A stretch of DNA of 64,000 nucleotides from an uncultured candidatus Porisulfidus sp. (GTDB taxonomy: Bacteria > Pseudomonadota > Gammaproteobacteria > Poriferisulfidales > Poriferisulfidaceae): NCBI GenBank assembly GCA_965204575.1, contig OZ241993.1:96001-160000 (forward strand), in the 5' to 3' direction. The notes beneath the pieces are model-generated. The model was not told where the DNA came from. It was given only the letters and a program-made list of their open reading frames with translations, and did no database searches. The translations under genes were made by a program, and so were the position numbers. Below, piece by piece: positions 31,652 through 51,382 of this stretch. Position 1 is the stretch's first letter, and the number at the start of each line of letters is the position of its first letter.

Positions 31652-32008
31652 TTAGATCCGCATATCCAGAGTGATTTCGGAATACAGGGTGCGCGGCGCA
31701 ACTCTACCCTTCTGGCCCTTCTCCAGACGCACGAGACCGTACTGCTCCAAGGTATGCAGTGTTCTTGAAAGATTTGATTTGGCGCGTCCCGAGATTTCGG
31801 CAAGCTCGGCAAGTGATTCCGGTTGTTCCTCCGCAATCTCTTTCAAGAGCCTTCGGTTTCTATCAGACAAAATCTTGGCAAAACTCTCGATGGAAGTGAA
31901 CCACACTTTCGGTTCGCCACGTTTTGGTTTGTATTCACCGCGAGCAATAGCGAGGCTACGAGCCTTCATTTCCTCGTAACTGGCAATTCCTACTTTCAGA
32001 GTCTTCAT
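31652..32008 (-). CDS. wHTH (MarR-like) antitoxin/transcriptional regulator
   Basis: MKTLKVGIAS...VWFTSIESFAKILS...SLAELAE.SGR.KSNLSRTL; typical partner of DUF6516. Confidence 0.8.
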   Translation of the reverse strand: MKTLKVGIASYEEMKARSLAIARGEYKPKRGEPKVWFTSIESFAKILSDRNRRLLKEIAEEQPESLAELAEISGRAKSNLSRTLHTLEQYGLVRLEKGQKGRVAPRTLYSEITLDMRI

Positions 32009-32379
32009 GGTATTACTCCTCTCTCTTTGAGTGTGGCATCGACTTCGGCCCAAAAATCTACAAGCAATGTAGCAGCATCCTGATATTCATAAGGTCGAAT
32101 CGTGCGGTGGCGATGCTTATGGTCATACGACTTTTGGCGCCGGCCACTTGGCCCCGACTTAAGGCGGACAGGATGGGCATTGTCAAAGCCGACAAGCCGA
32201 GTGCCTTCGTCTCCATGCAGTGTCAGAGAATATTCGATCCCATGCGGCTTTTCCTGAGTTGGAGGCACACGCTTTACGCGAAATCGTACCCAATGCTGTC
32301 CTGCTCGGTCAACCACAAAAGTCTCCCCATCCAAATCCAGCAATGCGTCTAAGCTTGGATCGCGTAGTGGTTGCGCCAT
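32005..32379 (-). CDS. DUF6516/TumE-family toxin
   Basis: LLDLDG, PHGIEYSLTLH, RLVGFDNAH, DHKH. Confidence 0.78.
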   Translation of the reverse strand: MAQPLRDPSLDALLDLDGETFVVDRAGQHWVRFRVKRVPPTQEKPHGIEYSLTLHGDEGTRLVGFDNAHPVRLKSGPSGRRQKSYDHKHRHRTIRPYEYQDAATLLVDFWAEVDATLKERGVIP

Positions 32380-32410: not shown

Positions 32411-33142
32411 TCAACTTGCCACCTTTAATGCCTGAATCTCCTTCCCGGACAGCCAGCGGACCTTTCCCGCTGGGTGGCCCCGATCCAATGAAATCGGCCC
32501 GTAACCGATCCGAATCAATCGGCTGACCTCCAGACCGACAGCTTGCCATATCCTCCGCACTTCGCGATTGCGTCCTTCGCGCAACGCGACTTCGTACCAG
32601 CGATTGCTTCCCTTGCCTCGCTTCTCGCGTATGTACTCGAACTTCGCCATCCCGTCTTCCAAATCCACTCCTGCTGTCAAGCGTTCCAACTGCTCCCGGT
32701 TCGGCGTGCCGCGAATCCGCGCCATATAGCGGCGTTGCACCTGCCCGCTCGGATGCATCAGGCGGTTCGCCAACTGTCCATCCGTAGTCAGCAGCAATAA
32801 GCCTGAAGTTTGGAAATCCAGCCGTCCGACCGCGATCCAACGCCCGTGCGAGAGTTCCGGCAGGTTATCGAAAACCGTCGGGCGCCCCTGTTCGTCCGAG
32901 CGGCTGGTAATCTGCCCCGCGGGCTTGTGATAGGCCACAACCTGACAGACTTCTGCGCTTTCCGGGAGGGGGCGTCCGTCGACCGTGACGACATCGTCCG
33001 GAGCCGCCCGATCCCCAAGCTTGGCGGGTTGGCCATTGACCTGGACCCGCCCCGCCTCGATCCATGTCTCGGCCTGGCGGCGCGAAGCAAGGCCCGCTTG
33101 GGCGATCAGTTTCTGGAGGCGTTGCGGCGTGTCGTCCGCCAT
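32411..33142 (-). CDS. rluB: 23S rRNA pseudouridine synthase B
   Basis: S4 domain RLQKLIAQAG.ASRR, GRLD, EGRNREVR; follows scpB. Confidence 0.9.
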   Translation of the reverse strand: MADDTPQRLQKLIAQAGLASRRQAETWIEAGRVQVNGQPAKLGDRAAPDDVVTVDGRPLPESAEVCQVVAYHKPAGQITSRSDEQGRPTVFDNLPELSHGRWIAVGRLDFQTSGLLLLTTDGQLANRLMHPSGQVQRRYMARIRGTPNREQLERLTAGVDLEDGMAKFEYIREKRGKGSNRWYEVALREGRNREVRRIWQAVGLEVSRLIRIGYGPISLDRGHPAGKVRWLSGKEIQALKVAS

Positions 33143-33802
33143 TCAGACTGCTTCTTCCGGCAAGTCGGGCGGCATCTCTTCTTCTGAAGGCCCGGGGGCC
33201 TCGGCATCGGCGGCCGGCCTCGCAAGCGATTCGGGTTCGGACATGCCTTGGATCTTCAACTGCGGGTCCACTTCTTCCTGGGCGCGCGGTTCGGGAAGCG
33301 GCGGCAATTCCTTCAGGCTCTTCAACCCGAAATAATCCAGGAACTCCTTCGTCGTTCCGTACAGTGCCGGGCGACCCGGGACCTGCTTGTAGCCCAGCAC
33401 GCGCACCCAGTTGCGCTCGGTCAGCGTCTGCATGATGCTGGTACTGGGTGCGACGCCGCGCACCTGTTCGATCTCGCCCCGCGTGATCGGCTGGCGGTAG
33501 ACGATCAATGCCAGTGTCTCCAGCAAAGCCTGAGAATAACGCGGCGGGCGTTGCTCCCAGAGGCGCCCGATGACCGCGGCGTAGTCCTGATCGATCTGGT
33601 AGCGCCAGCCGCTGGCCACCCGGACCAGCGAGAAACTCCTCCCCTCACATTCCTCCGCGAGCCCCGCCAGGATATCCGACACTTCCTTGCGCGACGGACG
33701 GTCACTGGCGCCAAACAGCTTCAACAAGGCATCCACGGACAACGGGTCCTCTGCAGCCATCAACGCGGCCTGAACCGTATCCCGGATTGCATTCTCAGGC
33801 AT
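33143..33802 (-). CDS. scpB: SMC-Scp complex subunit
   Basis: ALLETLALIVYRQPITR.EIE.VRGV, PGRPALYGTT.EFL. Confidence 0.95.
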   Translation of the reverse strand: MPENAIRDTVQAALMAAEDPLSVDALLKLFGASDRPSRKEVSDILAGLAEECEGRSFSLVRVASGWRYQIDQDYAAVIGRLWEQRPPRYSQALLETLALIVYRQPITRGEIEQVRGVAPSTSIMQTLTERNWVRVLGYKQVPGRPALYGTTKEFLDYFGLKSLKELPPLPEPRAQEEVDPQLKIQGMSEPESLARPAADAEAPGPSEEEMPPDLPEEAV

Positions 33803-34631
33803 GGGCCGGCTCCTCGTCCGTTCCGTGGACACGCCGGAAGATCGTGATCGGGCCGGCGAATTCTTCCTGGCGGCAGTCGATCATGCCGAGTTTGAGCAGC
33901 TCCAGGATGGCCAGCATGGAAACCGCCATGCCCTGGCGCCCTTCCTGTGACGTAAACAAGTCGGTGAACAGGCAGCTCTCCTTGGAGACGATCCGGTCCA
34001 GGATGTCGGACATTCGGTCCTGTACCGACAGCGATTCGGTTTCAATCTCGTGCGCCAGATTGTATTGAGCCCGCAGCAACATGGCCTCCAGGGCCATCAT
34101 GAGATCCTGCATGCCGACCTTGGGCAGCGGGCGGGGCACCGACAGGTCTCGGGTATCCAAGGCGAATTCGAATACATCCCGCTCCAGCCTCGGCAGGCCG
34201 TTGAGATCTTCCGCGGCAACCTTGAAACGTTCGTATTCCTGCAAGCGTCGCACCAGTTCGGCGCGCGGATCCTCCTCATCGCCCTCTTCTTCTTGCGCAG
34301 GAAGAAGCAAACGGGACTTGATCTCGGCCAGCATCGCCGCCATCACCAGGTATTCGGAAGCCAATTCCAGCTGCAACTCCTCCATCAGGGAAATGTGGTG
34401 CAGGTACTGGTTGGTGATCTCCACCAGCGGCAGGTCGAGAATGTCGAGGTTCTGTCGGCGGATCAGGTAGAGCAGCAGGTCCAAGGGGCCTTCGAAGGCA
34501 TCCAGGTAGATTTCCAGGGCCTCGGGGGGGATGTACAGGTCTTCCGGCAAGTCGACCATCGGCTCGCCATGCAGCATGGCCAGCGGCATTTCACGCTGCA
34601 CCGGAGGAGGGGTGCGCCTCGGGTCAGGCAT
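33795..34631 (-). CDS. scpA: segregation and condensation protein A
   Basis: FEGPLDLLLYLI, EYLVMAA.L.EIKSR.LLP. Confidence 0.95.
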   Translation of the reverse strand: MPDPRRTPPPVQREMPLAMLHGEPMVDLPEDLYIPPEALEIYLDAFEGPLDLLLYLIRRQNLDILDLPLVEITNQYLHHISLMEELQLELASEYLVMAAMLAEIKSRLLLPAQEEEGDEEDPRAELVRRLQEYERFKVAAEDLNGLPRLERDVFEFALDTRDLSVPRPLPKVGMQDLMMALEAMLLRAQYNLAHEIETESLSVQDRMSDILDRIVSKESCLFTDLFTSQEGRQGMAVSMLAILELLKLGMIDCRQEEFAGPITIFRRVHGTDEEPAHA

Positions 34632-35838
34632 AGTCGAGCCCCATGGCCTCGCTGACATCTTCCAGCGTGTCGCGGGCGACATCGCGGGCGGCTTCGCAGC
34701 CCTCGTGAATCAGGGCGTTCACTCCCGCCCGGTCCGACAGGTATTCGGCCGCACTGGCACGGACCGGGTCCAGTTCCGCCACCATGGCATCCAGCAGCCG
34801 GCGTTTGCAGTCCGTGCAGCCGATGCCGGCACTCCGGCAACCTTCTTCCACCCATTCGAGCGTTTTGGGGTCGGAATAGATCTTGTGCAGGTCCCAGACC
34901 GGGCATTTTTCGGGGTCGCCCGGGTCGCTGCGCCGCTTGCGGGCCGGATCCGTCATCATGCCCATCAGTTTTTTCTGGATGACGTCCGGCTCCTCGCGCA
35001 AACCCAGAGTGTTGTTGTAGGACTTGGACATCTTGCGCCCGTCCACGCCAGGCACCTTGGGCGCGGTCGTCAGGTATTCCGCCGGTTCCGGGAGGATCAT
35101 GCGCCATTCCCCTTCCAGGTAACCGTCCAAACGCTGCAAATCGCCCAGCGAAATGCTCTGCTGGCCGCGAAGCATCTCGCGCGCCACTTCCAGGGCCTGC
35201 GAGTCGCCCTGCTCCTGAAAGCGGCGGCGGTATTCCCGGTACAGGCGCGCCTCGTTCCGTCCCAAACGGTCGACCAGGCTCTCTGCCCGCTTCGCGAAAC
35301 CTTCCTCTTGTCCGTACAGATGATTGAAGCGGCGGGCAACCTCCCGCGTGAACTCGACGTGCGCCGCCTGGTCCTCGCCCACCGGAACCAGTTGCGCCTT
35401 GTACATCAGGATGTCGGCAGCCTGCAGCAAGGGATAGCCCAGAAAACCGTAGGTTGCCAGATCGCGATCCGTCTGCTCCTGCATCTCCTTGTAACTCGGC
35501 ACCCGCTCAAGCCAACTCAACGGCGTGAACATGGACAGCAGCAGGTGCAACTCCGCATGTTCCGGGACCTGCGACTGCACGAACAGGGTCGAGGCGCCCG
35601 GGCTGACGCCGCAGGCCAGCCAGTCCACCACCATCTCCCAGACATGGTCTTCCAGTCCGTCCGTCTCGCTGTAGTGGGTCGTCAGCGCATGCCAGTCGGC
35701 CACGAAAAAAAAGCATTCCTGGCTGTGCTGGAGTTTCACCCAGTTCTTGATGACGCCGTGGTAGTGACCCAGGTGCAACCGCCCGGTCGGGCGCATGCCG
35801 GACACCACCCGTTGACCGGCGGGTATGTCGCTTTCCAT
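34624..35838 (-). CDS. trpS: tryptophan--tRNA ligase (long form)
   Basis: SGMRPTG.LHLGH, YPLLQAADIL, VPVGEDQ, KMSKS. Confidence 0.97.
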   Translation of the reverse strand: MESDIPAGQRVVSGMRPTGRLHLGHYHGVIKNWVKLQHSQECFFFVADWHALTTHYSETDGLEDHVWEMVVDWLACGVSPGASTLFVQSQVPEHAELHLLLSMFTPLSWLERVPSYKEMQEQTDRDLATYGFLGYPLLQAADILMYKAQLVPVGEDQAAHVEFTREVARRFNHLYGQEEGFAKRAESLVDRLGRNEARLYREYRRRFQEQGDSQALEVAREMLRGQQSISLGDLQRLDGYLEGEWRMILPEPAEYLTTAPKVPGVDGRKMSKSYNNTLGLREEPDVIQKKLMGMMTDPARKRRSDPGDPEKCPVWDLHKIYSDPKTLEWVEEGCRSAGIGCTDCKRRLLDAMVAELDPVRASAAEYLSDRAGVNALIHEGCEAARDVARDTLEDVSEAMGLDYA

Positions 35839-36488
35839 TAAGAGATCGTCCAGGGAAGTCCGAAGAATTGATGCGCGGCGCCGATGAATGCGAGCAGCGG
35901 TATTCCGATTAATCCGTACATGGACCCGAGCAGGAACAAGGCCAAGACCACGATCAGGCCGTAACGTCCGAATTCCATCCATTTCCGGGCTAATTCCGGC
36001 GGCATCCACCGGGCGACCACGACCGATCCGTCCAAGGGAGGGATGGGAAGCAGGTTGAGCAGCATCAGGACCGAGTTGATCACAATTCCGGCCTGTCCCA
36101 CGACAAACAGGATGACGCCGAATTCAGACTCCAGTGCCACGCCCAGTCGGGCAATCAAGGCCCAGGCAACCAGCATCAGCACGTTGGCGGCAGGGCCGGC
36201 CGCCGCTACCCAAGCCATTTGCTCGCGAGGCCGGCGCAACCGGGAAGCATCAACCGGGACCGGCTTGGCCCAGCCCATCGCCACGCCAAGAGAGGCGACC
36301 ATGGCCAAGGGCAACACAAGCGTCCCCAGCCAATCGACATGCGGGAAAGGGTTGAGCGTCAGGCGGCCGGCTTCGGCGGCCGTCGGGTCTCCAAGGCGAT
36401 ACGCAACCCAACCGTGCGCGACTTCATGCACGGTGATGGCCAGCAGGACGGGAACCGCCCAGATTGCTAACGTCTGCGCTAATGACAT
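35838..36488 (-). CDS. site-2 protease (M50) family
   Basis: HEVAHG, AGPAAN, NLLPIPPLDG. Confidence 0.93.
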   Translation of the reverse strand: MSLAQTLAIWAVPVLLAITVHEVAHGWVAYRLGDPTAAEAGRLTLNPFPHVDWLGTLVLPLAMVASLGVAMGWAKPVPVDASRLRRPREQMAWVAAAGPAANVLMLVAWALIARLGVALESEFGVILFVVGQAGIVINSVLMLLNLLPIPPLDGSVVVARWMPPELARKWMEFGRYGLIVVLALFLLGSMYGLIGIPLLAFIGAAHQFFGLPWTIS

Positions 36489-36545
36489 GGTAGGCAGAAC
36501 AGGCGCCAACCGGCGGGAATCGGGAGGTTGGACACGATGCCCGAA

Positions 36546-37163
36546 TTATAGCAAGGGGAAGCTTCCACCGCCTTGGCGCACCACCTCCGGCACCTCGCCC
36601 ATCAGATCGACCACGGTGGTCGGAATGCTGGGGCAAAACCCGCTGTCGATGATCAGCGAAACCTGGCCCTTCAGGCGGTCGTACAGGTCGCCGGGCTCCA
36701 CCGGCGGGTCTTCCAGATCCGGCAGCATCAGGGTGCAACTCATCAGGGGGGCGTCGTATATTTCCAGCAAAGCCTGGACAACCCGGTGGTCGGGGATGCG
36801 CAACCCGATGGTGCGGCGCTTCGGCTCCATCAGGCGTCGCGGGACTTCGCGGGTCGCCTCCAGGAGGAACGTGTAGGGCCCCGGGGTATGGGCCTTCAGG
36901 ATCCGGTATGCCGTATTGTCGATCCGCGCGTACGAGGCCAGTTCCGAAAGGTCCCGGCACACCAGGGTGAACGGGTGCTTTTCGTCCAGGTCGCGCAGGC
37001 GTCTGATCTGTTCCATCGACGCCTTGTCCCCGACCGCGCAACCGAACGCATAGCAGGAATCGGTCGGGTAGACGAGCAGGCCGCCGGCGTGGAGCATTTC
37101 CGCGGCCTGGCGGACCAGGCGCGGCTGGGGGTTGTCCGGGTGGATCGAAAAACGCTGGGTCAT
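36546..37163 (-). CDS. yciO: Sua5/YciO/YrdC family protein
   Basis: IHPDNPQPR, YPTDSCY, TPGPYTF, IGLRIP. Confidence 0.88.
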   Translation of the reverse strand: MTQRFSIHPDNPQPRLVRQAAEMLHAGGLLVYPTDSCYAFGCAVGDKASMEQIRRLRDLDEKHPFTLVCRDLSELASYARIDNTAYRILKAHTPGPYTFLLEATREVPRRLMEPKRRTIGLRIPDHRVVQALLEIYDAPLMSCTLMLPDLEDPPVEPGDLYDRLKGQVSLIIDSGFCPSIPTTVVDLMGEVPEVVRQGGGSFPLL

Positions 37164-37184
37164 GTCTCTTTATAATTTAACCGC

Positions 37185-37793
37185 ATGAAATTGTTCATTG
37201 AATTGTTGCCCATCACGATCTTCGTGGTGGCGTATTTCTTTTATCCCGACCTGCCCGCCGCATGGGTCGTTGCGTTCTCCGACGCGACCTACCTGGAATT
37301 GACCGCAGGGGAGTCTGGAGACCGAATCTACTTTGCCACATTCGTACTGATTGTGGCCATGGTGATTCAGTGCGGGATTCTGTGGATGATACGGGAACTG
37401 GGCGGCACGCATCTTGCCGCGCTGGCCGTGGTCTTGGTCGCCGGCGGGCTGACCCTGCTCCTGAAGGATCCCCTGTTCATCAAATGGAAGCCGACCGTGT
37501 TTTACTGGGCGTTGGCGATAGCGTTCTTGGGATCCAGCCTGATTGGCTCCCGTACGCTGGTGGAGCGGATGTTCAGCAAGGCCTTCTCCCTGAATGATGC
37601 GCGGCTATGGCGCCAGTTGAACATCGCATGGGTCGGGTTTTTCCTGGTTTGCGGCGCACTTAATCTCTACGTCGCATATGGATTTTCGGAAGAGTTCTGG
37701 GTGCAGTTCAAACTGTTCGGCCTTGCCTTGGGACTGCCTGTTCTGTTCCTGCTGGCCCAGGGAATCTACCTCGCACCCCGGTTGAAAGACTGA
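37185..37793 (+). CDS. yciB: inner membrane-spanning protein YciB (IspZ)
   Basis: FIKWKPT, W..LN.AW, WVQFKLFG. Confidence 0.9.
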   Translation: MKLFIELLPITIFVVAYFFYPDLPAAWVVAFSDATYLELTAGESGDRIYFATFVLIVAMVIQCGILWMIRELGGTHLAALAVVLVAGGLTLLLKDPLFIKWKPTVFYWALAIAFLGSSLIGSRTLVERMFSKAFSLNDARLWRQLNIAWVGFFLVCGALNLYVAYGFSEEFWVQFKLFGLALGLPVLFLLAQGIYLAPRLKD

Positions 37794-37917
37794 CCTTCGC
37801 AAGACGAAAAAACCGGATTCTGCCGTCCCGTTGTCGCCCGCTGCCTCTTCGTTGCATCGGGCATAAAAAAATATTTCCTTATTTATCAATGGTATAGACG
37901 GGTGCTAGATTTGGGGC

Positions 37918-37947
37918 TTGACTTATATAAAAATATCCTTATATTAT
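37918..37947 (+). promoter_or_regulatory. sigma70-like promoter (TTGACT ... TATATT/TATTAT) with an internal ATATAA-N8-TTATAT palindrome
   Basis: ttgacttatataaaaatatccttatattat in an AT-rich patch. Confidence 0.65.
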
Positions 37948-38001
37948 GAAGTACTGGATGGCTGCGGATTTGGCCGTCGCGAAACACTACCGGAGATACT
38001 C

Positions 38002-38088
38002 ATGGACATTATCGCTCTTGATCTCATTGCCGCCCTGGTGATTTGGACTGCGGTTTTCGCCGTAGCTCGCCTGGGTTACCTGGACTAA
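38002..38088 (+). CDS. 28-aa single-TM small protein MDIIALDLIAALVIWTAVFAVARLGYLD
   Basis: GGAG RBS 6 nt upstream; hydrophobic; below the ORF-track cutoff. Confidence 0.6.
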   Translation: MDIIALDLIAALVIWTAVFAVARLGYLD

Positions 38089-38169
38089 AAATCTTCCTCC
38101 AGTGAGGCTAGTGCCGGGCTGGATGTCCGGCCCAAGGTCGACACGGATGTCGGCCGCTCACACTACAAC

Positions 38170-38206
38170 ACCCGGCCGCACCCCTCCTTCGTGGCCGGGT
38201 TTTTTT
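38170..38206 (+). terminator. Rho-independent terminator
   Basis: ACCCGGCCGC-loop-GTGGCCGGGT followed by a T tract. Confidence 0.8.
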
Positions 38207-39573
38207 CAGAACTCAATTGCCACGATGCTGACGGTGCCGGCCTTTTCGTTGGCCGTCGCCACGTAGCGCGCCCCATCCTGCTCGAACGTCACGACTCCTT
38301 CCGGCGCCAGCTTGCCATCCCCCTCGCGGCGCAGGGGCAATAGCGCCCGCACCTGCGGCGCGCCTGGATCCTCAAGATCGACCAGCACCAACGCATCCGC
38401 GCGCTCCAGCGCCACGACAGCCCAGGCCTTGCCTTCCGCTTCGAACGCGACCACGCCTTCCGGCTCCGAACCCTTGTTGTCGCTTCGCCCGTCCGGGTAG
38501 ATCCCCGCGGCGTGGGCCGCTTCATCCAGCTGGTTGGCCGTATCGCCAATCACTTTCCCGGTTTCCAGATCCACGACGCTGAGCGTGCGGCCGCCACCCG
38601 CCGGGCCGTTCCGGGATTTCGAGGCTTTCGGGTCGGTATCCCCTTCATCTGCCGTCACCAGGTACCGTCCGTCCGGCGTCACCGCGACCTGATCCGGTTC
38701 CCGAAAAGCCAGTAACATGTCAGTAAACGAAACCCGGTCGTCGTCTTCGAGGTCCGCTGCATGCTCGGTTGTCCCGAGGGCAATGATGCCGCGGACGGCC
38801 GCGCTCGCCACGTCGATGACCGCGACTCCATTGTTTTCCTGCAAGCTGACGTAAGCCGTTGTCCCATCCGGGGCGAAAACCGCGTATTCCGGCTCCAAGT
38901 GGATCGGATCGCTGGAATCCAGCGGAATCTCCACTTCCTCGCCATCCACCTCGCGCTCCAGGAATCGGCCTGCCTCCAAGGCGGTCAGCCCGTGCCCCCC
39001 GGGGAGCGCCTCGAGACGGACTTGCCGCACGACGCCCTCCAGCAACCCCGCGGTCAGGTCGACCAGCGTCACGCTGCCTGGATTCGAGCGCCATTGCCCA
39101 TTTTCAACCCAGTACTCTTCAGCCTCGTTCGCTGCCACCAGACGGTCCCCGGACGGGCTGAAATGAACGTCGTCCGGGCCGTATCCGGCCGCATAGTGCG
39201 CCAGCGTCTTCCCGTGCAGATCGATCAGCCGGATCTCACCGGTCTCCCTGGCCGGCCCAGTGACGGCCACCGCCAGCACCTCCCGGTCCGGATGAAAAGC
39301 GATCGAATTGATGGCATGCCCGTCCGGCAGCGCCAGGTCCAGCGTGCGGAGGTTCATCGGGAGGTTCGGCCTTAGCAAAGACACCAGATCGATTTTACCG
39401 GTTTCGCTGTTGCTCACCGCGAGCATGCGGGTGCTGGGTTGGTAGGAAAGGATTTCCGTGCCTTCCGGCTCGCTTGAGACCCAAGTCGCGACTAAAGACA
39501 GTTGCGGCTGGGCTGCATGGGCAGCAGTGGATATTGCGAGCCATAGAGCCGGAATTAAAATTCGGGAGGTCAT
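38206..39573 (-). CDS. secreted beta-propeller, choice-of-anchor I / alkaline phosphatase-associated family
   Basis: signal peptide; ANEAE, LEPEY, VSLQENN, PD...VTADEGD, RSDNKGSEPEG, LERAD, APEG. Confidence 0.75.
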   Translation of the reverse strand: MTSRILIPALWLAISTAAHAAQPQLSLVATWVSSEPEGTEILSYQPSTRMLAVSNSETGKIDLVSLLRPNLPMNLRTLDLALPDGHAINSIAFHPDREVLAVAVTGPARETGEIRLIDLHGKTLAHYAAGYGPDDVHFSPSGDRLVAANEAEEYWVENGQWRSNPGSVTLVDLTAGLLEGVVRQVRLEALPGGHGLTALEAGRFLEREVDGEEVEIPLDSSDPIHLEPEYAVFAPDGTTAYVSLQENNGVAVIDVASAAVRGIIALGTTEHAADLEDDDRVSFTDMLLAFREPDQVAVTPDGRYLVTADEGDTDPKASKSRNGPAGGGRTLSVVDLETGKVIGDTANQLDEAAHAAGIYPDGRSDNKGSEPEGVVAFEAEGKAWAVVALERADALVLVDLEDPGAPQVRALLPLRREGDGKLAPEGVVTFEQDGARYVATANEKAGTVSIVAIEF

Positions 39574-39685: not shown

Positions 39686-39893
39686 ATGGAAAAACCCCTG
39701 ATTATCCGAAGAGGTCAGTCCATTGCCGACCGGGTCCCCCGCACTGTTGACAAGTCGGGCAATCCCGACTGGGCAGCAGGCTACCAGAAAATGATGGACC
39801 GATTGGAGAAAGGTGCTTCGCTTGGGGGTCTGAGAATCAAACGAGAAGAACTCTATGACGGGTAAAAACCGTTTTCCACTTGATGGCAATTAA
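39686..39893 (+). pseudogene. remnant Phd/YefM-like antitoxin (39686-39865) plus 12-codon stub of a PIN toxin (39855-39893)
   Basis: IIRRGQSIA..VP...W.AGYQKMMDRLEKGASLGGLRIKREELYD; overlapping MTGKNRFPLDGN* resembles a VapC start. Confidence 0.55.
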
Positions 39894-40981
39894 AACGAAA
39901 GAGTGCCGCGAAGGGTCAGGCCGCCGTCATTGAGCGCCCGAAAGTCTTCCCCGTTGCCTTCCACGTAATCCAGTTCCAGAGCCAGCGTGGAATCCGCACG
40001 CCAGTGGATTCCGAGCAGCATGGAATCCGAACTCTTCGCCAGGCTTTCGGCCCGGTTGTCGAGGTTCGCGTAGCGCACCACCAACTCCCAGATCCCTTCC
40101 TCGTCGCGCGGTTCGATGTGTGCCAGCAATCCGGGCGCGTAACGGCTTTGCGTCTGTTCGCCCGTAATTCTCCAGGCCCCGCGAATGTGGAAGCCATCCA
40201 CGTTCGACTTGGCGCGGTCATGAAATGCCTGACTTTCCCTCCGGTCTCTGGATTTCAGGTATTGGGCCTGGATCGCGTAGGACTCCTGCGAATAGCCGAT
40301 GTCGAAGGCCAGATACCGGCCGGAACCCTGCGATTCCCTCTCCTCGCCTGCCAGCATGTCGAGGCCCGCATCCTCTCCCCAATTGCTGAACGACTGGAAC
40401 GACAGTCCGACGTGCAGGAAGCTCCCGTCCTCGAAGCGCGGCGCCACCATCAACTTCGCCTGCACTTCCGTAGAATCCGCCAAGGCTGCATTTTCATCGT
40501 ATCCCCGGACTTGAAATGAGCCATACCAGGGAATTTCCTCTCCGTGCACGAATCCGACCACCACGGGGATTTGGGCATCCGAGTCGTCTCCATTCGGAGA
40601 TGTGGCAAAACGGCCCAATACGCCTTGTTCAATGGTCCGGAACCAGCGCTCGCGCAATGAGCCGCCCAGCATGGCCGAGGTCGAGGCCCATGAAGAAGGA
40701 TTGGCCAAACCACCACCGCTGCTTTGACCTGGAGTTTCTGATACGCCGCTTTCCGGCAACCCGGACTGATGCAGCTGGCTCTGCATGCGCATCATCAGTT
40801 CCTTCATGCGCGACCCTTCGTCCACCAGGCTGTCGATCTCGTTCTCCGACAATGCCTGCGCCGGAGCGGCCAACAGCAAACTCAGGCTCACGCAAGTGAG
40901 CTGAAAGGCAAAGCGCGGGGAAAGGCAAGCGGGCCAGCGGCTTTCCTTGGCCAAGCAACCCGGCGAGACTGGGGAATGCAA
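39890..40981 (-). CDS. divergent OprO/OprP-like porin
   Basis: signal peptide; FLHVGLS, QAQY, GFHIRGAWRITGE, G.WELVVRY, LGIHW, terminal F. Confidence 0.65.
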   Translation of the reverse strand: MHSPVSPGCLAKESRWPACLSPRFAFQLTCVSLSLLLAAPAQALSENEIDSLVDEGSRMKELMMRMQSQLHQSGLPESGVSETPGQSSGGGLANPSSWASTSAMLGGSLRERWFRTIEQGVLGRFATSPNGDDSDAQIPVVVGFVHGEEIPWYGSFQVRGYDENAALADSTEVQAKLMVAPRFEDGSFLHVGLSFQSFSNWGEDAGLDMLAGEERESQGSGRYLAFDIGYSQESYAIQAQYLKSRDRRESQAFHDRAKSNVDGFHIRGAWRITGEQTQSRYAPGLLAHIEPRDEEGIWELVVRYANLDNRAESLAKSSDSMLLGIHWRADSTLALELDYVEGNGEDFRALNDGGLTLRGTLSF

Positions 40982-41197: not shown

Positions 41198-43063
41198 TCA
41201 GAACACGTACTGGCCTCGCAGCGAGAATGCCTGACCATCGTCTTCTTTGCACGCCCCACCGTCACTGAAGCTGTACGTGCCATCCTGCACTGTCGTCTCC
41301 CCGTCCGTGTATTCCTTGGGCGCTCCAGAGCAACCATCGATTTCCGAATCCACGTAGTTCAGCATGAACTTGACGTTCTTGTTGACGTACCAGTTCACAC
41401 CTAGAACCATGCGTTCCAGATCGGCACTCAGGCTTCTGCCGGGAATTTCCACTTCCGCGTCTTCGTAACGCGCAACCACTTCCCAGGCACCGCCTTCGTT
41501 TTTCGGCTTGATCGCGGCAAATGCGCCAGAGCCGGCCTTGTAACCGCGGGTCTCGCCCGTGAGGGTGTATGCAGCCTGCACGTAGAAGCCGTCCATCTCA
41601 ATATCGCAAGTATCCGAGAATTCATCTTCAAATGCTTCTTTCACTGCATCTTTTGCTGCAATCACCCGCGTGATTTCTCGCTCCCGGACAATGAAGTCTC
41701 CTTCAACAGTCGAATCCACAGTCGAACCAGCATCTACGGTTCCATCATTGTCAGTATCAGTAACAGCGCCAAATGACTGCCCGGCCTCATAACCGGCCAG
41801 ATCTTCCTGCGATACCCCTAAGTCAACTTCCACTTCCATGACAGACTGATCTGTGGCTGTTTCGTCTTCATCCGTAGCGGGATCGTCTGTCTCGATATTC
41901 GGATTACCCGTAGCGACCTCCATCACCAAGTATTTCTCCATTCCGAGGGGATCGCCATCCTCGCCCACCGTCACTGTCTGTTCTGGAACTGCAGCCTTAC
42001 TAGGCGTATACTCACCAGTTGCACTACAAGCAGCGTTGTCGGTCCCGTCAGACTCCACGTTCATGAATTCGCCCTGAAGCGAGAACGGACCATTGACGTA
42101 TGCAAGCTCAACACCAAACTGGTCGACGTCGTCGGACGCATGACTGTCGGAATTGAACGGACGTCCCGTAGTATGTACGCCCATGCGGGTGCGCATGCGA
42201 TGGTTGTTACCCTTGTAGTCTACGGTGTAGAACGAAGCACCTGCGTGTATGAAAGAGTTGTCGCCTAACTTCGGCATGATGGAGAAGCGGGCACCGATGC
42301 CATAGACATCACCGCCGTCATCTTCCTCAACCTCGTCATCGTAGACGCCAATCGCACCACTCATCGGCATGTCGCCCTTGGTCGCAAAACCGACCGAGAT
42401 ACCGCCGAAATCAGGTTTGCCGATAACAGCACCCGACAGTTCATTGACGATTGACCGCTCAATCGTTGAGATCCACTTGGAACTGGTGCGCTCTTCGAGC
42501 ATGCCCGGACGCTTGTATTTACCCAGCATCGCGTACATCGGCTTGCTGGAGTATTTCAGATAGCCGGTATCAACGTTCGCCTCGGAATCCTCGTGGTCGA
42601 TGTTGGTCGTGAACTTGTAGGACCAGTGCTTGCCGGACTTACCGCTCAAGGTGATGCGCGACCGACGAATCTCGTTTTCTTCCGCGTCTTCGCCATCCCA
42701 GAATTCATCATAGGAATCAAAGTCATACATCAGCCGGCCACCAATCTTGAACTGGTTGCCTTTGCTGGACTTGACCTTGATACCCCCACCGGTCGTGGAA
42801 ATAGTAATGTCTTCCTTCTTGGACTTGACCATGCCGCCTTTTTTCTGGTCGGCGCCTTCAGCCGCCTTTCTGGCCTGCTGCTCCATGGCATTGATCTTCA
42901 TCATGACTTCCTGCAACTGCTCCTGCATCTGCATCAGCATCTGCTTCATCTCGGCATTCTCCTGTTTGAGGTGGTTGATTTCCCCATCCGATGCCAAAAC
43001 AGATGCCGGCAATGCAATGGCCAGCGTTAGCGCAGCAGGAACTGCGAATTTTGATTTCCACAT
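41198..43063 (-). CDS. phosphate-selective porin OprO/OprP family with large insertion
   Basis: GGRLMYD, EIRRSR, LEERTSSK...IERS, GPFSLQGEF, GFYVQAAYTLTGE.RGY, GAWEVVARY, LGVNWY, QYVF. Confidence 0.9.
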   Translation of the reverse strand: MWKSKFAVPAALTLAIALPASVLASDGEINHLKQENAEMKQMLMQMQEQLQEVMMKINAMEQQARKAAEGADQKKGGMVKSKKEDITISTTGGGIKVKSSKGNQFKIGGRLMYDFDSYDEFWDGEDAEENEIRRSRITLSGKSGKHWSYKFTTNIDHEDSEANVDTGYLKYSSKPMYAMLGKYKRPGMLEERTSSKWISTIERSIVNELSGAVIGKPDFGGISVGFATKGDMPMSGAIGVYDDEVEEDDGGDVYGIGARFSIMPKLGDNSFIHAGASFYTVDYKGNNHRMRTRMGVHTTGRPFNSDSHASDDVDQFGVELAYVNGPFSLQGEFMNVESDGTDNAACSATGEYTPSKAAVPEQTVTVGEDGDPLGMEKYLVMEVATGNPNIETDDPATDEDETATDQSVMEVEVDLGVSQEDLAGYEAGQSFGAVTDTDNDGTVDAGSTVDSTVEGDFIVREREITRVIAAKDAVKEAFEDEFSDTCDIEMDGFYVQAAYTLTGETRGYKAGSGAFAAIKPKNEGGAWEVVARYEDAEVEIPGRSLSADLERMVLGVNWYVNKNVKFMLNYVDSEIDGCSGAPKEYTDGETTVQDGTYSFSDGGACKEDDGQAFSLRGQYVF

Positions 43064-43285: not shown

Positions 43286-43975
43286 TTACTCCGGCTCGCT
43301 GTTTTCCTGGTCCGTCGCCGATGTCCGGCTCCCCCAGCCATGCTCGACCGCAAGCACCGCCGCCGCGACCCGGGAAGTCACCCCCAGTTTTCGCAGAATC
43401 GCCTTGACATGGACCTTGACCGTGCCCTCGGAAATGCCCAGGTTGTCTCCAATTCCACGATTGCTCAGGCCTTCGGCAAGCAAGGCCAGAATCTCTTTCT
43501 CCCGAGGAGTCAAGACATCAAACGGACTCTCATCGCTTTCCGGGGGTTCCGGCTCCCGGCCCTGGACCACGCGGGCCAGCGCCGGTGTCAGGCTCGGCGC
43601 CACCACGGTCTCGCCCGCCTCGATGGAGCGCAATGCCACCACCAAGGCGTCCGGCTCCATGTCTTTCAGCAAATACCCGCTGGCTCCGGAACGTAGCGCT
43701 TCGACCAGATCCTTCTCCTCGTCACTCGTGGTCAGCATCACCACCGGCGGGCATTCCTCGCTTTCACGCAACTTCCGGAGGATTTCGAGCCCGTCGGTCT
43801 GCGGCAAGCGCAAGTCCAGCAACACGATGTCCGGACGGCGCCTGGCGATCGCCGCATAACCGGACTCGGCATCCCCCACCGAATCCAACACTTTCAACCC
43901 GTGACGCTCCAGCAAGCCCTGCAGGCCTTCCCGAAACAGGGTATGGTCATCGATGACGGTAACAGTTAACGTCAT
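43286..43975 (-). CDS. NarL/FixJ-family response regulator
   Basis: DDHTLFREG, LLD, GYLLK, LTPREKEIL...GTVKVHVK. Confidence 0.95.
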   Translation of the reverse strand: MTLTVTVIDDHTLFREGLQGLLERHGLKVLDSVGDAESGYAAIARRRPDIVLLDLRLPQTDGLEILRKLRESEECPPVVMLTTSDEEKDLVEALRSGASGYLLKDMEPDALVVALRSIEAGETVVAPSLTPALARVVQGREPEPPESDESPFDVLTPREKEILALLAEGLSNRGIGDNLGISEGTVKVHVKAILRKLGVTSRVAAAVLAVEHGWGSRTSATDQENSEPE

Positions 43976-44892
43976 GCCGCCTTGGCCCTCTCCGGCATCG
44001 CCTTGAACTCAAGCAATATTCGCACACCCTCCTCCGGCTCGCTCTCCACCCGCAGCCTTCCTCCCAGGCGCATCGCCCGGTCCTGCAACAGGCTCAACCC
44101 GATATGGGTTCCCTGCCCTTCCCGCGGCGGGTCCGCGAACCCCACCCCGTCGTCTTCCACCAACACCCGGCAGTTCCCGCCCTCCGCATCGCCTGAAATC
44201 AGGACGCGCACCGTGCTGGCCTGCGCATGCTTGCGCGCATTGGCCAGGGCTTCCTGCACAATGCGCACGATTTGCAACTCGTGCTCGGCCGGCAGTTTCA
44301 AATCCTCCCACCGAGTCTGCAGCAGCACGCGAACGTCTGGACAATCCCGCCGAAAGCGCTCCACCGTCCTCTCAATGGCCGGCAACAGCCCCGCTTCGCT
44401 GATCGGCACACGGAAATGCGCGATCAGTTCTCGCAACTCGATGTTGGCTTCCTCCAGGCTCTCCTCGATCCTTTCGAGTTCCTCCCAGGTTCGTTCTTCG
44501 TCTCCTTGATGCAAGGTTTCGTCCAGCACTCGCACTTGCATCTTGATTCCGGCCAGAGTCTGCGCCAAGGAATCATGCAACTCCCCGGACAACCGGGTGC
44601 GTTCCTTCATGGCGGTATAGTTGCTGAATTCCTGCAACTGCTCTTCCGTGTCCCGCGACAGGGTCTGAACCATTTCGGCAAGCACGTTCAGGTCGGTCGC
44701 AAGTTCTGCGAAATCGCCTTTCGGCGGCACCGGTACTCTCGCCGACAGTTCACCCCCGCGCATGCGGAATACCCATTGCCGGATGGCTTCGTAAGGAGCC
44801 ATCCTTTGCCGGTACACCCAAATCAAGAATGCGGCGGCGGCTCCCAGAAGCAGACCGAATACGATAAATCCTGGCGTACCCAATCCAAGCAT
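43972..44892 (-). CDS. NarX/LiaS-type (HisKA_3) sensor kinase with one TM + HAMP
   Basis: ERTRLSGELHDSLAQ, QEALANARKHA, DDGVGF, HIGL. Confidence 0.9.
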   Translation of the reverse strand: MLGLGTPGFIVFGLLLGAAAAFLIWVYRQRMAPYEAIRQWVFRMRGGELSARVPVPPKGDFAELATDLNVLAEMVQTLSRDTEEQLQEFSNYTAMKERTRLSGELHDSLAQTLAGIKMQVRVLDETLHQGDEERTWEELERIEESLEEANIELRELIAHFRVPISEAGLLPAIERTVERFRRDCPDVRVLLQTRWEDLKLPAEHELQIVRIVQEALANARKHAQASTVRVLISGDAEGGNCRVLVEDDGVGFADPPREGQGTHIGLSLLQDRAMRLGGRLRVESEPEEGVRILLEFKAMPERAKAA

Positions 44893-45447: not shown

Positions 45448-46803
45448 ATGAGGAAACTTATGAGAAAAACTACTTTTTGCACGGGGCTGGCAATGGCAGC
45501 TGCGATGGCGTGGACCGTTCCGGCACTTGCGGATGAAACCTGCATGTCGCCGTACATTGCCAAGATTCAAGGCCAGGAAGATTACGTCTATGTCTGGACC
45601 TTGGGCGTGGAAGGCATGGGGGACGAGCAGGACAAGCTGGTCACCATCGACACCAACCCCGAATCCAAAACCTATGGCCAAGTGGTCAGCGTACTGTCCG
45701 TCGGTGGGCGCAACGAAGCGCACCATTCCGGACTGTCTGACGATCGCCATTACCTGTGGGCCGGCGGACTGGACTCCAGCAAGGTCTTCGTGTTCGACAT
45801 CCACAGCAACCCGCGGCAGCCTAAACTGCACAAGGTCATCACCGACTTCGTCGAGAAGTCCGGCGGACTGGTTGGCCCGCACACCTTCTATGCCCTACCC
45901 GGGCGGATGATGATTACGGCGCTGTCCAACAACGCCGATCACGGCGGACGCACCGGCGTGGCTGAATACAACAACGATGGCGAATTCGTGGCGTCCCACT
46001 GGATGCCGACGGACGAAGACCTTCGCGGCGCGGTCAAGACCGGCCAGCACGCCGACGGCTACGGCTACGACCTTCGGGTCAAGGCTGAAAGCAACGTGAT
46101 GCTGACCTCGTCCTTCACCGGCTGGTCCAACTACATGATGGACTTCGGCCAGATGCTGCAGGACAGTGCTGCCATGCAGCGCTTCGGCAACACCATGGTG
46201 GTGTGGGACATGCATGCCCGCAAGCCGCTCAAGGTGCTGGACGTGCCGGGGGCTCCACTGGAGATCCGCTGCGCCTGGGACCCGGATCACCGCTACTGCT
46301 TCACCACGACGGCGCTGACCTCCCAGGTCTGGCTCCTGTACGAGGATGAAGCCGGCGAATGGCACGGCAAGGCCGTCGCCGATGTCGGGGTTCCTTCCGA
46401 AATCCCCCTGCCGGTGGACATTTCCATCACGGCCGACGACACGGGATTGTGGATCAACACCTTCATGGACGGCAAGACCCGCTACTTCGACATTTCCGAC
46501 CCGAATGCGCCCAAGCAGGTCTTCGAGGAAGTGATCGGAAGCCAGGTCAACATGGTCTCCCAGAGCTGGGACGGCGACCGCGTTTACTTCTCCAGTTCCC
46601 TGCTGAACAACTGGGACAAGACGGGTGAAGCAGACGAGCAGTACGTCAAGCTCTACCACTGGGATGGCGAAGCACTCGCACACCAGTGGACGGTTGATTT
46701 CTATGCCGAGCAGTTGGGCCGTTCGCACCAGATGCGTTTCGGCGCCTATGCCCTGTACGGCAAGCGCCCAGATGCTGACACCCGGACCGCGATGGCCGAA
46801 TAA
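45448..46803 (+). CDS. mtoX: methanethiol oxidase (SBP56 family)
   Basis: signal peptide then DETCMSPY, EAHHSG, GPHT, SFTGW and LLNNWDK (TTQ Trp positions), followed by SCO and mauG. Confidence 0.92.
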   Translation: MRKLMRKTTFCTGLAMAAAMAWTVPALADETCMSPYIAKIQGQEDYVYVWTLGVEGMGDEQDKLVTIDTNPESKTYGQVVSVLSVGGRNEAHHSGLSDDRHYLWAGGLDSSKVFVFDIHSNPRQPKLHKVITDFVEKSGGLVGPHTFYALPGRMMITALSNNADHGGRTGVAEYNNDGEFVASHWMPTDEDLRGAVKTGQHADGYGYDLRVKAESNVMLTSSFTGWSNYMMDFGQMLQDSAAMQRFGNTMVVWDMHARKPLKVLDVPGAPLEIRCAWDPDHRYCFTTTALTSQVWLLYEDEAGEWHGKAVADVGVPSEIPLPVDISITADDTGLWINTFMDGKTRYFDISDPNAPKQVFEEVIGSQVNMVSQSWDGDRVYFSSSLLNNWDKTGEADEQYVKLYHWDGEALAHQWTVDFYAEQLGRSHQMRFGAYALYGKRPDADTRTAMAE

Positions 46804-46836
46804 CCTGTCACGGCCTTCGGGCCAAGCGCAAGTGGA

Positions 46837-46867
46837 AAGCCGCCCTGCCTGTCAGGGCGGTTTTTTT
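46837..46867 (+). terminator. Rho-independent terminator after mtoX
   Basis: aaagccgccctg-cctgt-cagggcggttttttt. Confidence 0.8.
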
Positions 46868-46919
46868 AGCAGAAAAGCCGAACTTTTGAACTTTAGAACA
46901 CTCTTATAGAATACCGATT

Positions 46920-47612
46920 ATGAATCGTTTGAACCGTATCCGTACCCTAGCCGGGTTGGCTGCCCTGAGCCTGATCTCAGGGGGATTCGAGGCTGTCGCA
47001 GAAGATGAAATTCTCGCGCCCGGATGGAAAAACCTGAGCTACGAACCGCCTGCTGTAGGCAGTTACCAACTGCCTCCCATCACCCACGCCTCCGACGGGG
47101 CCGTACTCCTCGAAGACGGCCAGGAGTCTCAGCTGTTCGACCTGATGGGTGACCGTCTCGTGCTGTTCAGCTTCATCTACACTCGATGCAACGACATCAA
47201 CGGCTGCCCTCTCGCCAACGCGGTCTTTCACAAGCTCCAGGCGAAACTGCAGGAGCGCCCGGATGTCGCCCAGGCCACACGGCTTCTATCGATATCGTTC
47301 GACCCGGAGCGCGACACCCCCGAAGTCATGCGGGAATTCGGGCAGGGGCTTGGCGGCGACGGAGTGGACTGGCAGTTCCTCACCACGCAGGACCGCGGAA
47401 CCCTGGAGCCGATCCTCGACGATTACGGCCAGTACACCATACGCGAATACGATGAAAGCGGAGAATACACCGGCGATTTCGCTCATATGCTGCGGGTGTT
47501 CCTGATCGACCGAGAGTTGCGCGTCCGCAACATCTACAGCGTCGCATTCCTGCATGCCGACATCCTGATCAACGACCTGGAGACTCTCCTCCTGGAGTCT
47601 CCCCCTAGCTGA
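46920..47612 (+). CDS. SCO1/SenC copper chaperone
   Basis: FIYTRCNDINGCP, SFDPERDTPE, H.LRVFLID. Confidence 0.88.
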   Translation: MNRLNRIRTLAGLAALSLISGGFEAVAEDEILAPGWKNLSYEPPAVGSYQLPPITHASDGAVLLEDGQESQLFDLMGDRLVLFSFIYTRCNDINGCPLANAVFHKLQAKLQERPDVAQATRLLSISFDPERDTPEVMREFGQGLGGDGVDWQFLTTQDRGTLEPILDDYGQYTIREYDESGEYTGDFAHMLRVFLIDRELRVRNIYSVAFLHADILINDLETLLLESPPS

Positions 47613-47620
47613 TTCCCGTC

Positions 47621-48985
47621 ATGTACAACCCGGCACGGATGCGTTTTCGCACCCTTGCCGTAGCCCTTGCCGTTACGAGTCTTTGCGTTGCGGCCTTTGC
47701 CGAGACCAGCGGCGAACTGGATGCCCCGGAGAAGTTCGACACCAGCCAAACGCAAGGACCCGGAGACGTCAAGGAAGGCTATGAAAGCAGGGACTACGAG
47801 ACTCGCTCGCGAAGCCTGCTGAAGCGCCGTGGCGTCAAGAAAGACCTGATTCGTTTCGCGCAAAACCCGCCGTTGGGCCTGCCGCCCGTACCCATCCCGG
47901 CTGAAAACCCGCTGACCCGCGCCAAGATCGATCTCGGCCGAAAACTGTTCTTCGACCGTCGCCTGTCGATCAACGACACCTTCGCCTGCGCGACTTGCCA
48001 CATCCCGGAACAGGGCTTCACCAACAACGAAATGCGCACCGCAGTCGGCGTGGAGGGCCGCTCGGTACTGCGCAACTCCCCCACCCTCTACAACGTTGCC
48101 TACCTGGCACGGCTGTTCTTGGACGGCCGCGAAATCAGCCTGGAAAACCAGATCTGGCAGCCGATGACCGCACACAACGAGATGGCGGCACCCTCGATCG
48201 GCTGGATCATCAACAAGATCCGCCGCATGCGCGACTACGACGGGTTGTTCGAGAAGGCCTTCGGCGGCTCAGGCCCGGACATCCTCACGGTCGGCCAGGC
48301 GCTGGCCAGCTATCAACGCACCCTGCTGGCGGCCAACTCGCCATTCGACCGATGGTATTTCGGGAATCAGACCGATGCGGTCGATGAGTCCGTCAAGCGG
48401 GGCTTCGGGGTCTTCTCCGGAAAGGGCCAGTGCATCGTGTGCCACACCATGCAGAAGGAACACGCCCTGTTCACCGACCAGAAATTCCACAACACGGGAC
48501 TGGGCTACATGATCTCGTTCAGCAAGGGCTCCAAGGACGCACCCAAGACCACCCGCGTCCAACTCGCGCCTGGCGTGTTCGTGGACGTGTCGAACGAGAA
48601 AATCGAAGCGGTCTCGCAACAGAAACTGCCAAACGATCTCGGCCTCTACCGGGTCACCGAAAACCCGAACGACCGCTGGCGGTTCCGGACCCAGAGCCTG
48701 CGCAATGTCGAGTTGACCGCGCCCTACATGCACAACGGCAAATTCGACACCCTTCGCGAAGTGATCGACTTCTACGACCAGGGCGGCATCCCAAATGAGC
48801 TGTTGTCCCCCTTTATCTCTCCCCTCAACCTCAGCGAACAGGAAAAACAGGACTTGGAAGCGTTCCTGCTTTCCTTGACCGGCAGCACCATCCCGGAAAT
48901 CGTGGCCGATGCCTTTGCCGCACCGATCGGCGACCTGAGCCTGGAAGACCCCAACTGGGCACACGAAGAAACGCTGGGATACTGA
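47621..48985 (+). CDS. mauG: MauG-like di-heme cytochrome c (TTQ maturation)
   Basis: CATCH and CIVCH, RNSPT, LRNV.LTAPYMHNG; position in the mto cluster. Confidence 0.82.
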   Translation: MYNPARMRFRTLAVALAVTSLCVAAFAETSGELDAPEKFDTSQTQGPGDVKEGYESRDYETRSRSLLKRRGVKKDLIRFAQNPPLGLPPVPIPAENPLTRAKIDLGRKLFFDRRLSINDTFACATCHIPEQGFTNNEMRTAVGVEGRSVLRNSPTLYNVAYLARLFLDGREISLENQIWQPMTAHNEMAAPSIGWIINKIRRMRDYDGLFEKAFGGSGPDILTVGQALASYQRTLLAANSPFDRWYFGNQTDAVDESVKRGFGVFSGKGQCIVCHTMQKEHALFTDQKFHNTGLGYMISFSKGSKDAPKTTRVQLAPGVFVDVSNEKIEAVSQQKLPNDLGLYRVTENPNDRWRFRTQSLRNVELTAPYMHNGKFDTLREVIDFYDQGGIPNELLSPFISPLNLSEQEKQDLEAFLLSLTGSTIPEIVADAFAAPIGDLSLEDPNWAHEETLGY

Positions 48986-48986
48986 C

Positions 48987-51373: not shown

Positions 51374-51382
51374 ATCCTAGGA

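Follow-up and report, generated by a model that had tools for sequence, protein, structure and literature searches.

A conserved mini-gene of sponge-symbiont bacteria joins a small-protein ORF to a constrained 3' RNA domain

Introduction

Does the spacer downstream of yciB/ispZ in the genome of a sponge-associated bacterium hold a gene of its own, and would the product of such a gene act as a protein, as an RNA, or as both? The spacer (37794-38205) lies in a 64,000-nt stretch of contig OZ241993.1 (the window) from an uncultured Candidatus Porisulfidus sp., a sulfur-oxidiser-like gammaproteobacterium. It is bounded by yciB/ispZ itself (37185-37793; Pfam IspA, E = 2e-50) and by a convergent gene for a choice-of-anchor I protein on the minus strand (38206-39573). 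Between the two, and without annotation, lies an element on the plus strand that consists of a promoter (37918-37945), a small open reading frame (ORF; 38002-38088) and a 118-nt folded 3' domain (38089-38206) with an intrinsic terminator.

An earlier inspection of the letters (the sequence-only reading) had proposed an mRNA that encodes a small membrane protein and in addition sponges CsrA or base-pairs with target mRNAs, with the mRNA of a type I toxin as the alternative. The features it listed (promoter, GGAG, ORF, hairpins, CU-rich motif, terminator and eight GGA triplets) are all present, the promoter being located just upstream of position 37950, where that reading had let the element begin. 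Here we compare the window copy with the syntenic loci of four relatives (L001-L004, giving five sequences). The comparison identifies a real mini-gene of sponge-symbiont bacteria that is conserved as a unit. With its predicted promoter and terminator, this unit is best read as one that is transcribed independently, over about 255 nt, and we lean towards a dual function for its RNA.

Results

The unit is kept at a fixed site in related genomes

A pattern scan of genome contigs with the peptide alignment matched 61 stretches, five of which passed tblastn and four of which are true relatives. The remaining one, L005, from a Phycisphaerae bin (16 residues, 69% identity), was treated as a false positive and excluded from all alignments. 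The four relatives all belong to sponge-associated Gammaproteobacteria and are genome bins, one with the title Candidatus Porisulfidus sp. TsSOB; their loci are collinear with window positions 32423-38246 at 90.7-92.5% identity. The element occurs in one copy per genome, at the same syntenic site in all five. A covariance model search found no second copy of the 3' domain in the window or the loci, and no copies on plasmids or phages were found with the peptide (tblastn against both) or on plasmids with the whole unit (blastn).

The convergent choice-of-anchor I beta-propeller gene is whole in the window and has decayed at this fixed site in all four relatives, where 24-44 nt of its 3' end remain (L001 5823-5852, L002 6201-6224, L003 and L004 6197-6240); L004 additionally keeps a 33-residue relic. 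The terminator of the element is conserved in these relatives although they have lost the convergent gene, and therefore belongs to the small-ORF unit. That the unit stayed nearly unchanged while its neighbour decayed in four out of four relatives suggests that it is important to these bacteria.

The ORF is a small-protein gene

The ORF runs from an ATG at 38002 to a TAA at 38086-38088 and translates to the 28-residue peptide MDIIALDLIAALVIWTAVFAVARLGYLD. Across the five genomes its nonsynonymous and synonymous distances (dN and dS) are 0.047 and 0.314, a dN/dS of 0.15; the dS is similar to that of the flanking genes (0.26-0.50), for which dN/dS is 0.03-0.10. The variable columns are distributed over codon positions 1, 2 and 3 as 4, 3 and 10, the third position holding 10 of the 17 (p = 0.027). 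Frame, start and stop are intact in every genome, and the substitutions swap hydrophobic residues. Because of the dN/dS and the third-position bias of the variable columns we call the ORF coding: the small-protein gene is real, and purifying selection acts on it. The claim of the sequence-only reading that a small protein is encoded is borne out by the same values and by distant homologues.

A longer reading of the same frame, 56 residues from a TTG start (37918-38088), was ruled out, as homologues either lack its N-terminal half or have a different one. A protein search with this reading returned three proteins that are conserved only over the C-terminal 28 residues, and the real start is therefore the ATG at 38002. 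When 1.84 billion representatives were searched with a profile (E <= 0.001), only four proteins were retrieved, all with the same core; three of these (P0004-P0006) are new and more divergent, with the core retained. Six further variants of the peptide are known beyond the five genomes, all with the C-terminal RLGYLD, and this hexapeptide and a tryptophan are invariant in 11 of 11 peptides.

The peptide (MDII...W...RLGYLD) has about 20 consecutive, mostly hydrophobic residues, with D2, R23 and D28 flanking the predicted helix and D7 inside it. Judged by this composition, it would be a membrane peptide with a single helix. Pfam and NCBIfam hold no family at threshold for the 28-residue or the 56-residue reading; DUF6408 was considered and dropped (18.1 bits against a cut-off of 25). 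The ESM Atlas gave no lead, its best score of 0.80 being one that shuffled proteins attain in one case out of three. The peptide carries no name in any source that holds it, a literature search for RLGYLD found nothing, and among the papers found on Porisulfidus none is about the element.

The 3' domain is constrained as RNA

Of the 118 columns of the 3' domain (38089-38206), 101 do not vary, compared with 634 of the 1044 third codon positions in five neighbouring genes (Fisher p = 2.9e-8), and the mean pairwise distance is 0.063 against a dS of about 0.3, which makes the domain about five times slower than synonymous sites. The last 121 nt fold with -54.2 kcal/mol compared to -38.4 +/- 3.3 kcal/mol for shuffled sequences (z = -4.85; 0 of 200 as good), whereas for the full 255 nt the advantage over shuffles is modest (z = -2.18; 6 of 200 as good). 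The 3' domain is thus constrained as RNA far beyond neutral sites, in a manner compatible with its fold.

In the consensus fold a three-way junction precedes the terminator. The domain opens with an AU-rich linker and the first of two CU-rich anti-Shine-Dalgarno motifs (38089-38101; motif CUUCCUCC at 38093-38100), a stretch that may serve as seed and processing site. The junction (38102-38162) is closed by the helix GUGAG/CUCAC (38102-38106 with 38158-38162), which encloses hairpin 1 (38113-38131; GCCGGGC-TGGAT-GTCCGGC, loop UGGAU) and hairpin 2 (38136-38155; GGTCGACA-CGGA-TGTCGGCC, loop YGGA within ACA-N-GGA-N-GU). The intrinsic terminator (38170-38206) has a 10-bp stem (38170-38200) and an 11-nt loop ACCCCUCCUUC, the second of the anti-Shine-Dalgarno motifs; a run of U follows and extends to 38206. 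The terminator is absent from the list produced by our terminator scan, which was limited to loops of 3-8 nt.

Out of the 30 pairs of the consensus fold, 23 do not vary, six show one-sided changes in which the pair is kept through G-U, and one is broken in two sequences. The junction accounts for 20 of these pairs (15 unvarying, four with one-sided changes and the pair kept, and the loop-closing A-U of hairpin 2, which reads A-C in two of the five sequences), and the terminator for 10 (eight unvarying, two with wobble changes only). Cells that are paired in the consensus can pair in 98.7% of cases, against 26-43% with slid partners. Both the ORF and the hairpins are found conserved in the four relatives; a lack of such conservation was one of the outcomes that the sequence-only reading had named as refuting its proposal.

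Unpaired columns are invariant about as often (48 of 58) as paired ones (53 of 60), which argues that the sequences of loops and linker are important in their own right. The first CU-rich motif (CTTCCTCC, predicted to be unpaired or weakly paired) has a core, UCCUCCAG, that is invariant in all five sequences, with one U deleted and one A->G change in the linker and motif of L001 and L002. The CCCCUCCUUC of the terminator loop is invariant, and this loop is otherwise unchanged save for a CUU duplication in L003 and L004. Both hairpin-loop GGAs, 24 nt apart, are invariant, and the 10-nt motif of hairpin 2 varies at its two N positions only.

These observations bear on a rival account of the element, namely an ordinary small-protein mRNA with a 3' domain that acts only in cis, for example on how stable the mRNA is, on termination and perhaps, via a bound protein, on translation of the peptide. 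The clear selection on the ORF fits this account, a structured 3' untranslated region with a terminator is commonplace, no known small RNA family in Rfam matches, and no trans target emerged among the 63 start regions in the window. A stabilising structure, however, needs stems and not loops, whereas the invariant unpaired columns here include both CU-rich motifs and both GGA loops; moreover, a terminator loop of 11-14 nt is unusually large and is conserved, and the whole domain is more constrained than synonymous sites by the factor given above. We regard a purely cis-acting domain as possible, though rather improbable.

Promoter, upstream sites and leader

A promoter scan found two overlapping promoter-like matches where 0.4 were expected. 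The sigma-70-type promoter TTGACT-16-TATATT (37918-37945) matches the consensus at 10 of 12 positions. In the block around it (37913-37951) 36 of 39 columns are invariant and the pairwise distance is 0.043, against a dS of about 0.3, whereas the spacer segment 37794-37865 next to the promoter evolves as neutral sequence (47 of 72 columns invariant, p = 0.53).

The promoter is accompanied by a 19-nt direct repeat, D1, with 79% identity between two copies that lie 60 nt apart; a palindrome, I1, was detected as well. Copy 1 (37864-37882) is an AT-rich imperfect palindrome centred at about -80 from the predicted start and a candidate regulator-binding site, and copy 2 (37924-37942) fills the promoter spacer. 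In the block at the upstream palindrome (37866-37895) 25 of 30 columns are invariant. Both copies of the palindrome are conserved, which makes a DNA-binding regulator probable, and the AT-rich sites are probably the operator through which it controls the unit.

Judging from the -10 box, transcription would start near 37952. The predicted 5' leader (37952-38001; 37 of 50 columns invariant) contains a 7-bp hairpin (37957-37978), the outer G-C pair of which reads A-C in two of the five sequences, and the Shine-Dalgarno sequence GGAG (37992-37995), with the ATG 6 nt further on.

Type I toxin mRNAs such as tisB, hok, ldr and zor encode hydrophobic peptides of less than 30 residues on structured mRNAs, and the ends of the known toxins are mostly basic. 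The alternative raised by the sequence-only reading, that the unit is the toxin-encoding half of a type I toxin-antitoxin pair, with a membrane-damaging peptide that is silenced by an RNA antitoxin or by the folded 3' end, agrees with the shortness and hydrophobicity of this putative toxin, with the strong structure of the mRNA and with the abundance of type II toxin-antitoxin modules in the window. Yet a consensus scan of the minus strand over 37500-38700 found no promoter-like site, although a weak promoter could escape such a scan, and no antisense or neighbouring antitoxin RNA is predicted. The unit differs from type I toxin genes also in being a single copy at a fixed syntenic site in all five genomes, off mobile elements and without the plasmid or phage copies searched for, and it was retained while the neighbouring gene decayed. 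Its near-consensus promoter, well-spaced Shine-Dalgarno sequence and short 50-nt leader, and the net acidic peptide (D2, D7 and D28 against R23), argue in the same direction. We therefore judge a type I toxin very unlikely.

Toxin-antitoxin-like modules occur densely in the 64 kb (191-799, 31652-32379, 50414-51042, 51879-52154 and 54837-55472) and comprise ParE/ParD, TumE with a helix-turn-helix partner, Fic/Doc with a small upstream ORF, a PIN domain and a zeta-toxin-like kinase. Four tRNA genes on the minus strand (51298-51660; Pro-UGG, Arg-UCU, His-GUG and Lys-CUU) adjoin toxin-antitoxin-like ORFs.

GGA motifs and the Csr/Rsm question

The sponges RsmY and RsmZ carry higher motif counts than the element, and the RsmE consensus has the form A/UCANGGANGU/A. 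The eight GGA triplets of the element (37956, 37966, 37992, 38004, 38045, 38082, 38121 and 38145) are an ordinary number: stretches of 255 nt in the window contain 5.3 +/- 2.7 on average, and 20% of them contain at least eight. Only two A-N-GGA motifs occur in the 255 nt. Hairpins with GGA in the loop and a stem of at least 6 bp are common: the two strands of the window together have 56 of them, compared with a shuffle mean of 43. Likewise ACANGGATGT, present twice in the window, is not rare. The two GGAs at the start of the leader (37956 and 37966) are not conserved in the relatives, the one at 37966, which lies in a loop, being lost in two of five genomes, and three others are dictated by codons of the ORF. 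This leaves two loop GGAs that are invariant in five of five genomes, far fewer than in known sponges.

Taken one by one, the GGA count, the GGA-loop hairpins and ACANGGATGT would be compatible with a chance arrangement of motifs in a functionless intergenic spacer. The promoter, ORF and 3' domain are conserved far beyond neutral sites, however, and the ORF has a coding signature and distant peptide homologues, which makes such an arrangement hardly credible.

The GacA/UvrY-type box (TGTAAG-N6-CTTACA) is at chance level: with up to three mismatches the window contains 10 matches where 8.05 are expected, and the local one (37926-37943) falls within the spacer of the promoter. Six-frame translations of the 64-kb window and of L001-L005 contained no match to a short CsrA signature motif. 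At gathering score Rfam matched only five tRNAs in the whole window, and at E <= 10 it gave six sub-threshold matches on 37750-38300. The sequence-only reading had called for a comparison with the Csr/Rsm families, and no Csr/Rsm model is among the matches at either setting.

We can now assess the proposal of a CsrA- or RsmA-sequestering sponge of the CsrB, RsmY or RsmZ type that also encodes the peptide. In its favour are the two invariant GGA-presenting hairpins 24 nt apart, of which hairpin 2 (ACA-N-GGA-N-GU) fits RUACARGGAUGU, the consensus for CsrA obtained by SELEX, and shares this high-affinity consensus with Csr/Rsm ligands, as described in excerpts of PMC7652899. Five sequence criteria for such sponges are given in the excerpted text of PMC1488887. 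Compared with these, the element is intergenic and ends in a Rho-independent terminator and its repetition of loop GGAs is weak, whereas motif density and the upstream site fail. Furthermore, only two loop GGAs are conserved in an ordinary total, the Rfam models did not match, the csrA signature was not found in the window or the loci, and the capacity of the RNA would be about one dimer. The element, with two A-N-GGA motifs, a GacA/UvrY box at chance level and a coding RNA, is not a classic CsrA sponge, and we consider even a peptide-encoding variant of one unlikely. This part of the sequence-only reading is not supported. The two GGA hairpins are a candidate dock for one CsrA-type dimer, in which case the RNA would be a regulator or target bound by CsrA and not a sponge; we put this forward tentatively, as something that is possible without being expected.

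Other genes in the window

Beyond the convergent gene, the minus strand carries two homologues of phosphate-selective porin O/P (39890-40981 and 41198-43063) and, after them, a response regulator of the NarL/LuxR type with a HisKA_3 kinase (43286-44892). On the plus strand, a homologue of the selenium-binding protein SBP56, SCO1/SenC, a di-haem MauG-type peroxidase and an AhpC/redoxin protein are encoded in the same direction (45448-49490). This cluster resembles methanethiol-oxidase gene clusters, and would be of interest for a sponge symbiont if it is one. Further along the same strand (52522-54570), a DUF2282 small protein, an MbnB/TglH/ChrH-type enzyme (E = 2e-97) that modifies ribosomally synthesised peptides, and a DUF2063 protein stand in a row, a layout that resembles the clusters for copper-related 'bufferin' peptides. 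The plus strand also encodes, at 9924-11330, an IS605 OrfB/TnpB-type protein whose TNB domain is Cas12f-like and whose gene has a third-position GC content of 0.84, the highest among the listed ORFs.

Discussion

The ORF is under selection and the 3' end is conserved as a folded RNA, and therefore a transcript that combines coding with an RNA function is the best reading of the unit. We favour, with modest confidence, a dual-function RNA that provides a small protein and a regulatory RNA in the manner of VcdRP or ccaF1-CcsR, the mechanism of the RNA part being inferred. Consistent with this reading, the short transcript has its own promoter and terminator, both predicted and both conserved, and the ORF is conserved as a protein by dN/dS, third-position bias and distant homologues, translation itself being predicted. 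The proposal of the sequence-only reading that a small protein and an RNA function are combined thus survives for the coding ORF and the conserved folded 3' RNA, and finds no support for the CsrA sponge.

According to the model that we propose, a near-consensus sigma-70 promoter, flanked by AT-rich palindromic sites, would drive an mRNA with the 28-residue ORF at its centre. The last 118 nt would form a compact RNA domain, with a single-stranded U/C-rich stretch (UCUUCCUCCA), a junction that presents two GGA loops and a terminator that carries CCCCUCCUUC in its loop. This domain could act as a riboregulator, be it as part of the full-length RNA or once it has been cut off in the AU-rich stretch at the stop codon. 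Anti-Shine-Dalgarno motifs lie at its 5' edge and in the terminator loop, and both may pair in trans with the ribosome-binding sites of target mRNAs; the two GGA hairpins may dock one dimer of the CsrA/RsmA type or another RNA-binding protein.

Several points weigh against a dual function. The start site, processing and trans action are all inferred, and the conserved 3' domain could serve its mRNA in cis only. When the CU-rich motifs and the linker were matched against the 63 start regions of the window, duplex energies were no better than those of shuffled seeds. The five sequences are close (about 92% identity) and yield no double-sided compensatory changes, and the shuffle control of pair conservation was uninformative (500 of 500); the fold is compatible with the sequence data, and is not proven by covariation. 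The best Rfam match, the ar14 'cuckoo' family (RF02344), reaches 19.2 bits (E = 0.22), where the gathering score is 58.8. With respect to the proposed dock, the CsrA ligands selected by SELEX mostly have up to four pairs in the excerpts of PMC7652899, and the stems here are longer, with 7-8 GC-rich pairs.

A bolder version of the dual-function reading would combine three activities in one lineage-specific regulator of sponge symbionts: a membrane peptide, silencing through two anti-Shine-Dalgarno motifs that resemble 16S rRNA, and the capture of one CsrA/RsmA dimer on the two-hairpin platform. We regard this combination as speculative and improbable. If true, it would link the physiology of the membrane to the control of translation and to the Csr network, and it would represent a minimal class of CsrA decoy that searches based on motif density cannot detect.

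The small proteins and regulatory RNAs of uncultured symbionts are almost wholly unannotated, and the element is a clean, testable candidate among them with a modular layout (ORF, seed, GGA platform, and a seed in the terminator loop). Should its 3' domain be a riboregulator, the element would provide a dual-function RNA, defined by its sequence, from beyond the few model organisms in which such RNAs are known. The kind of unit, a small ORF and a riboregulator on one short transcript, is already known; the peptide family and the RNA domain are new to the libraries searched (Pfam, NCBIfam and Rfam).

Among the known systems, the Csr/Rsm RNAs CsrB, CsrC and RsmX/Y/Z resemble the element in having GGA in hairpin loops upstream of an intrinsic terminator, as far as excerpts of their descriptions go (PMC7652899, PMC1488887). 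McaS is similar in this respect. CsrB is described with 16 motifs in single-stranded regions (PMC1488887), against two conserved loop GGAs here, and the element differs further from this group in its coding capacity and in the scans reported above, where motif enrichment, an upstream activating site and an Rfam match were not found. AzuCR of E. coli is likewise a short RNA that encodes a 28-residue small protein and also base-pairs with mRNAs (PMC8915982). In the excerpted account its coding and base-pairing sequences overlap and AzuC is amphipathic (PMC8915982), whereas our unit keeps ORF and RNA domain apart and its peptide resembles a transmembrane helix. The two share no sequence similarity.

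The CcsR RNAs are a precedent for such a design. In ccaF1-CcsR1-4, small RNAs with anti-Shine-Dalgarno loops are cut from the 3' untranslated region of a small-protein mRNA (PMC8034643), and in Rhodobacter it is RNase E that releases them, next to U residues (PMC8034643, PMC4615179). Similar to the element, a small-protein gene is followed by RNA with CCUCC-type anti-Shine-Dalgarno motifs in hairpin loops (PMC8034643, PMC4615179). The cuckoo RNAs, as presented in the excerpts, are found in alphaproteobacteria and consist of two to four adjacent hairpins with CCUCCUCCC in each loop (PMC8034643, PMC4615179), whereas here the terminator loop alone carries the motif (CCCCUCCUUC), the other copy lies outside a hairpin, and the encoded protein is not a DUF1127 protein. 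With a score below gathering and the repeated loop motif absent, the element is not a member of the cuckoo/CcsR (ar14) family.

In overall organization a further precedent is VcdRP of Vibrio cholerae, for which excerpts of PMC8672173 describe a small ORF at the 5' side, a C-rich seed at the 3' side, a terminator, and isoforms that depend on RNase E. Both are transcripts of a few hundred nucleotides from their own promoter, with a 5'-proximal ORF of 29 residues in VcdRP (PMC8672173) and 28 here, followed by a conserved 3' region that has a C-rich motif directed at translation-initiation sites (predicted for our unit) and a Rho-independent terminator. The two differ in that VcdP is described as binding citrate synthase (PMC8672173), whereas the peptide described here is a predicted hydrophobic helix, and neither the peptide nor the RNA sequences are similar. 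The putative seed of our unit is CU-rich (CCUCC), is present twice and is joined by the two GGA hairpins. VcdRP (PMC8672173) and ccaF1-CcsR1-4 (PMC8034643) are both processed, and it is by comparison with them that we propose cleavage at the AU-rich stretch around the stop codon, from which the 3' domain of the symbiont unit would be released.

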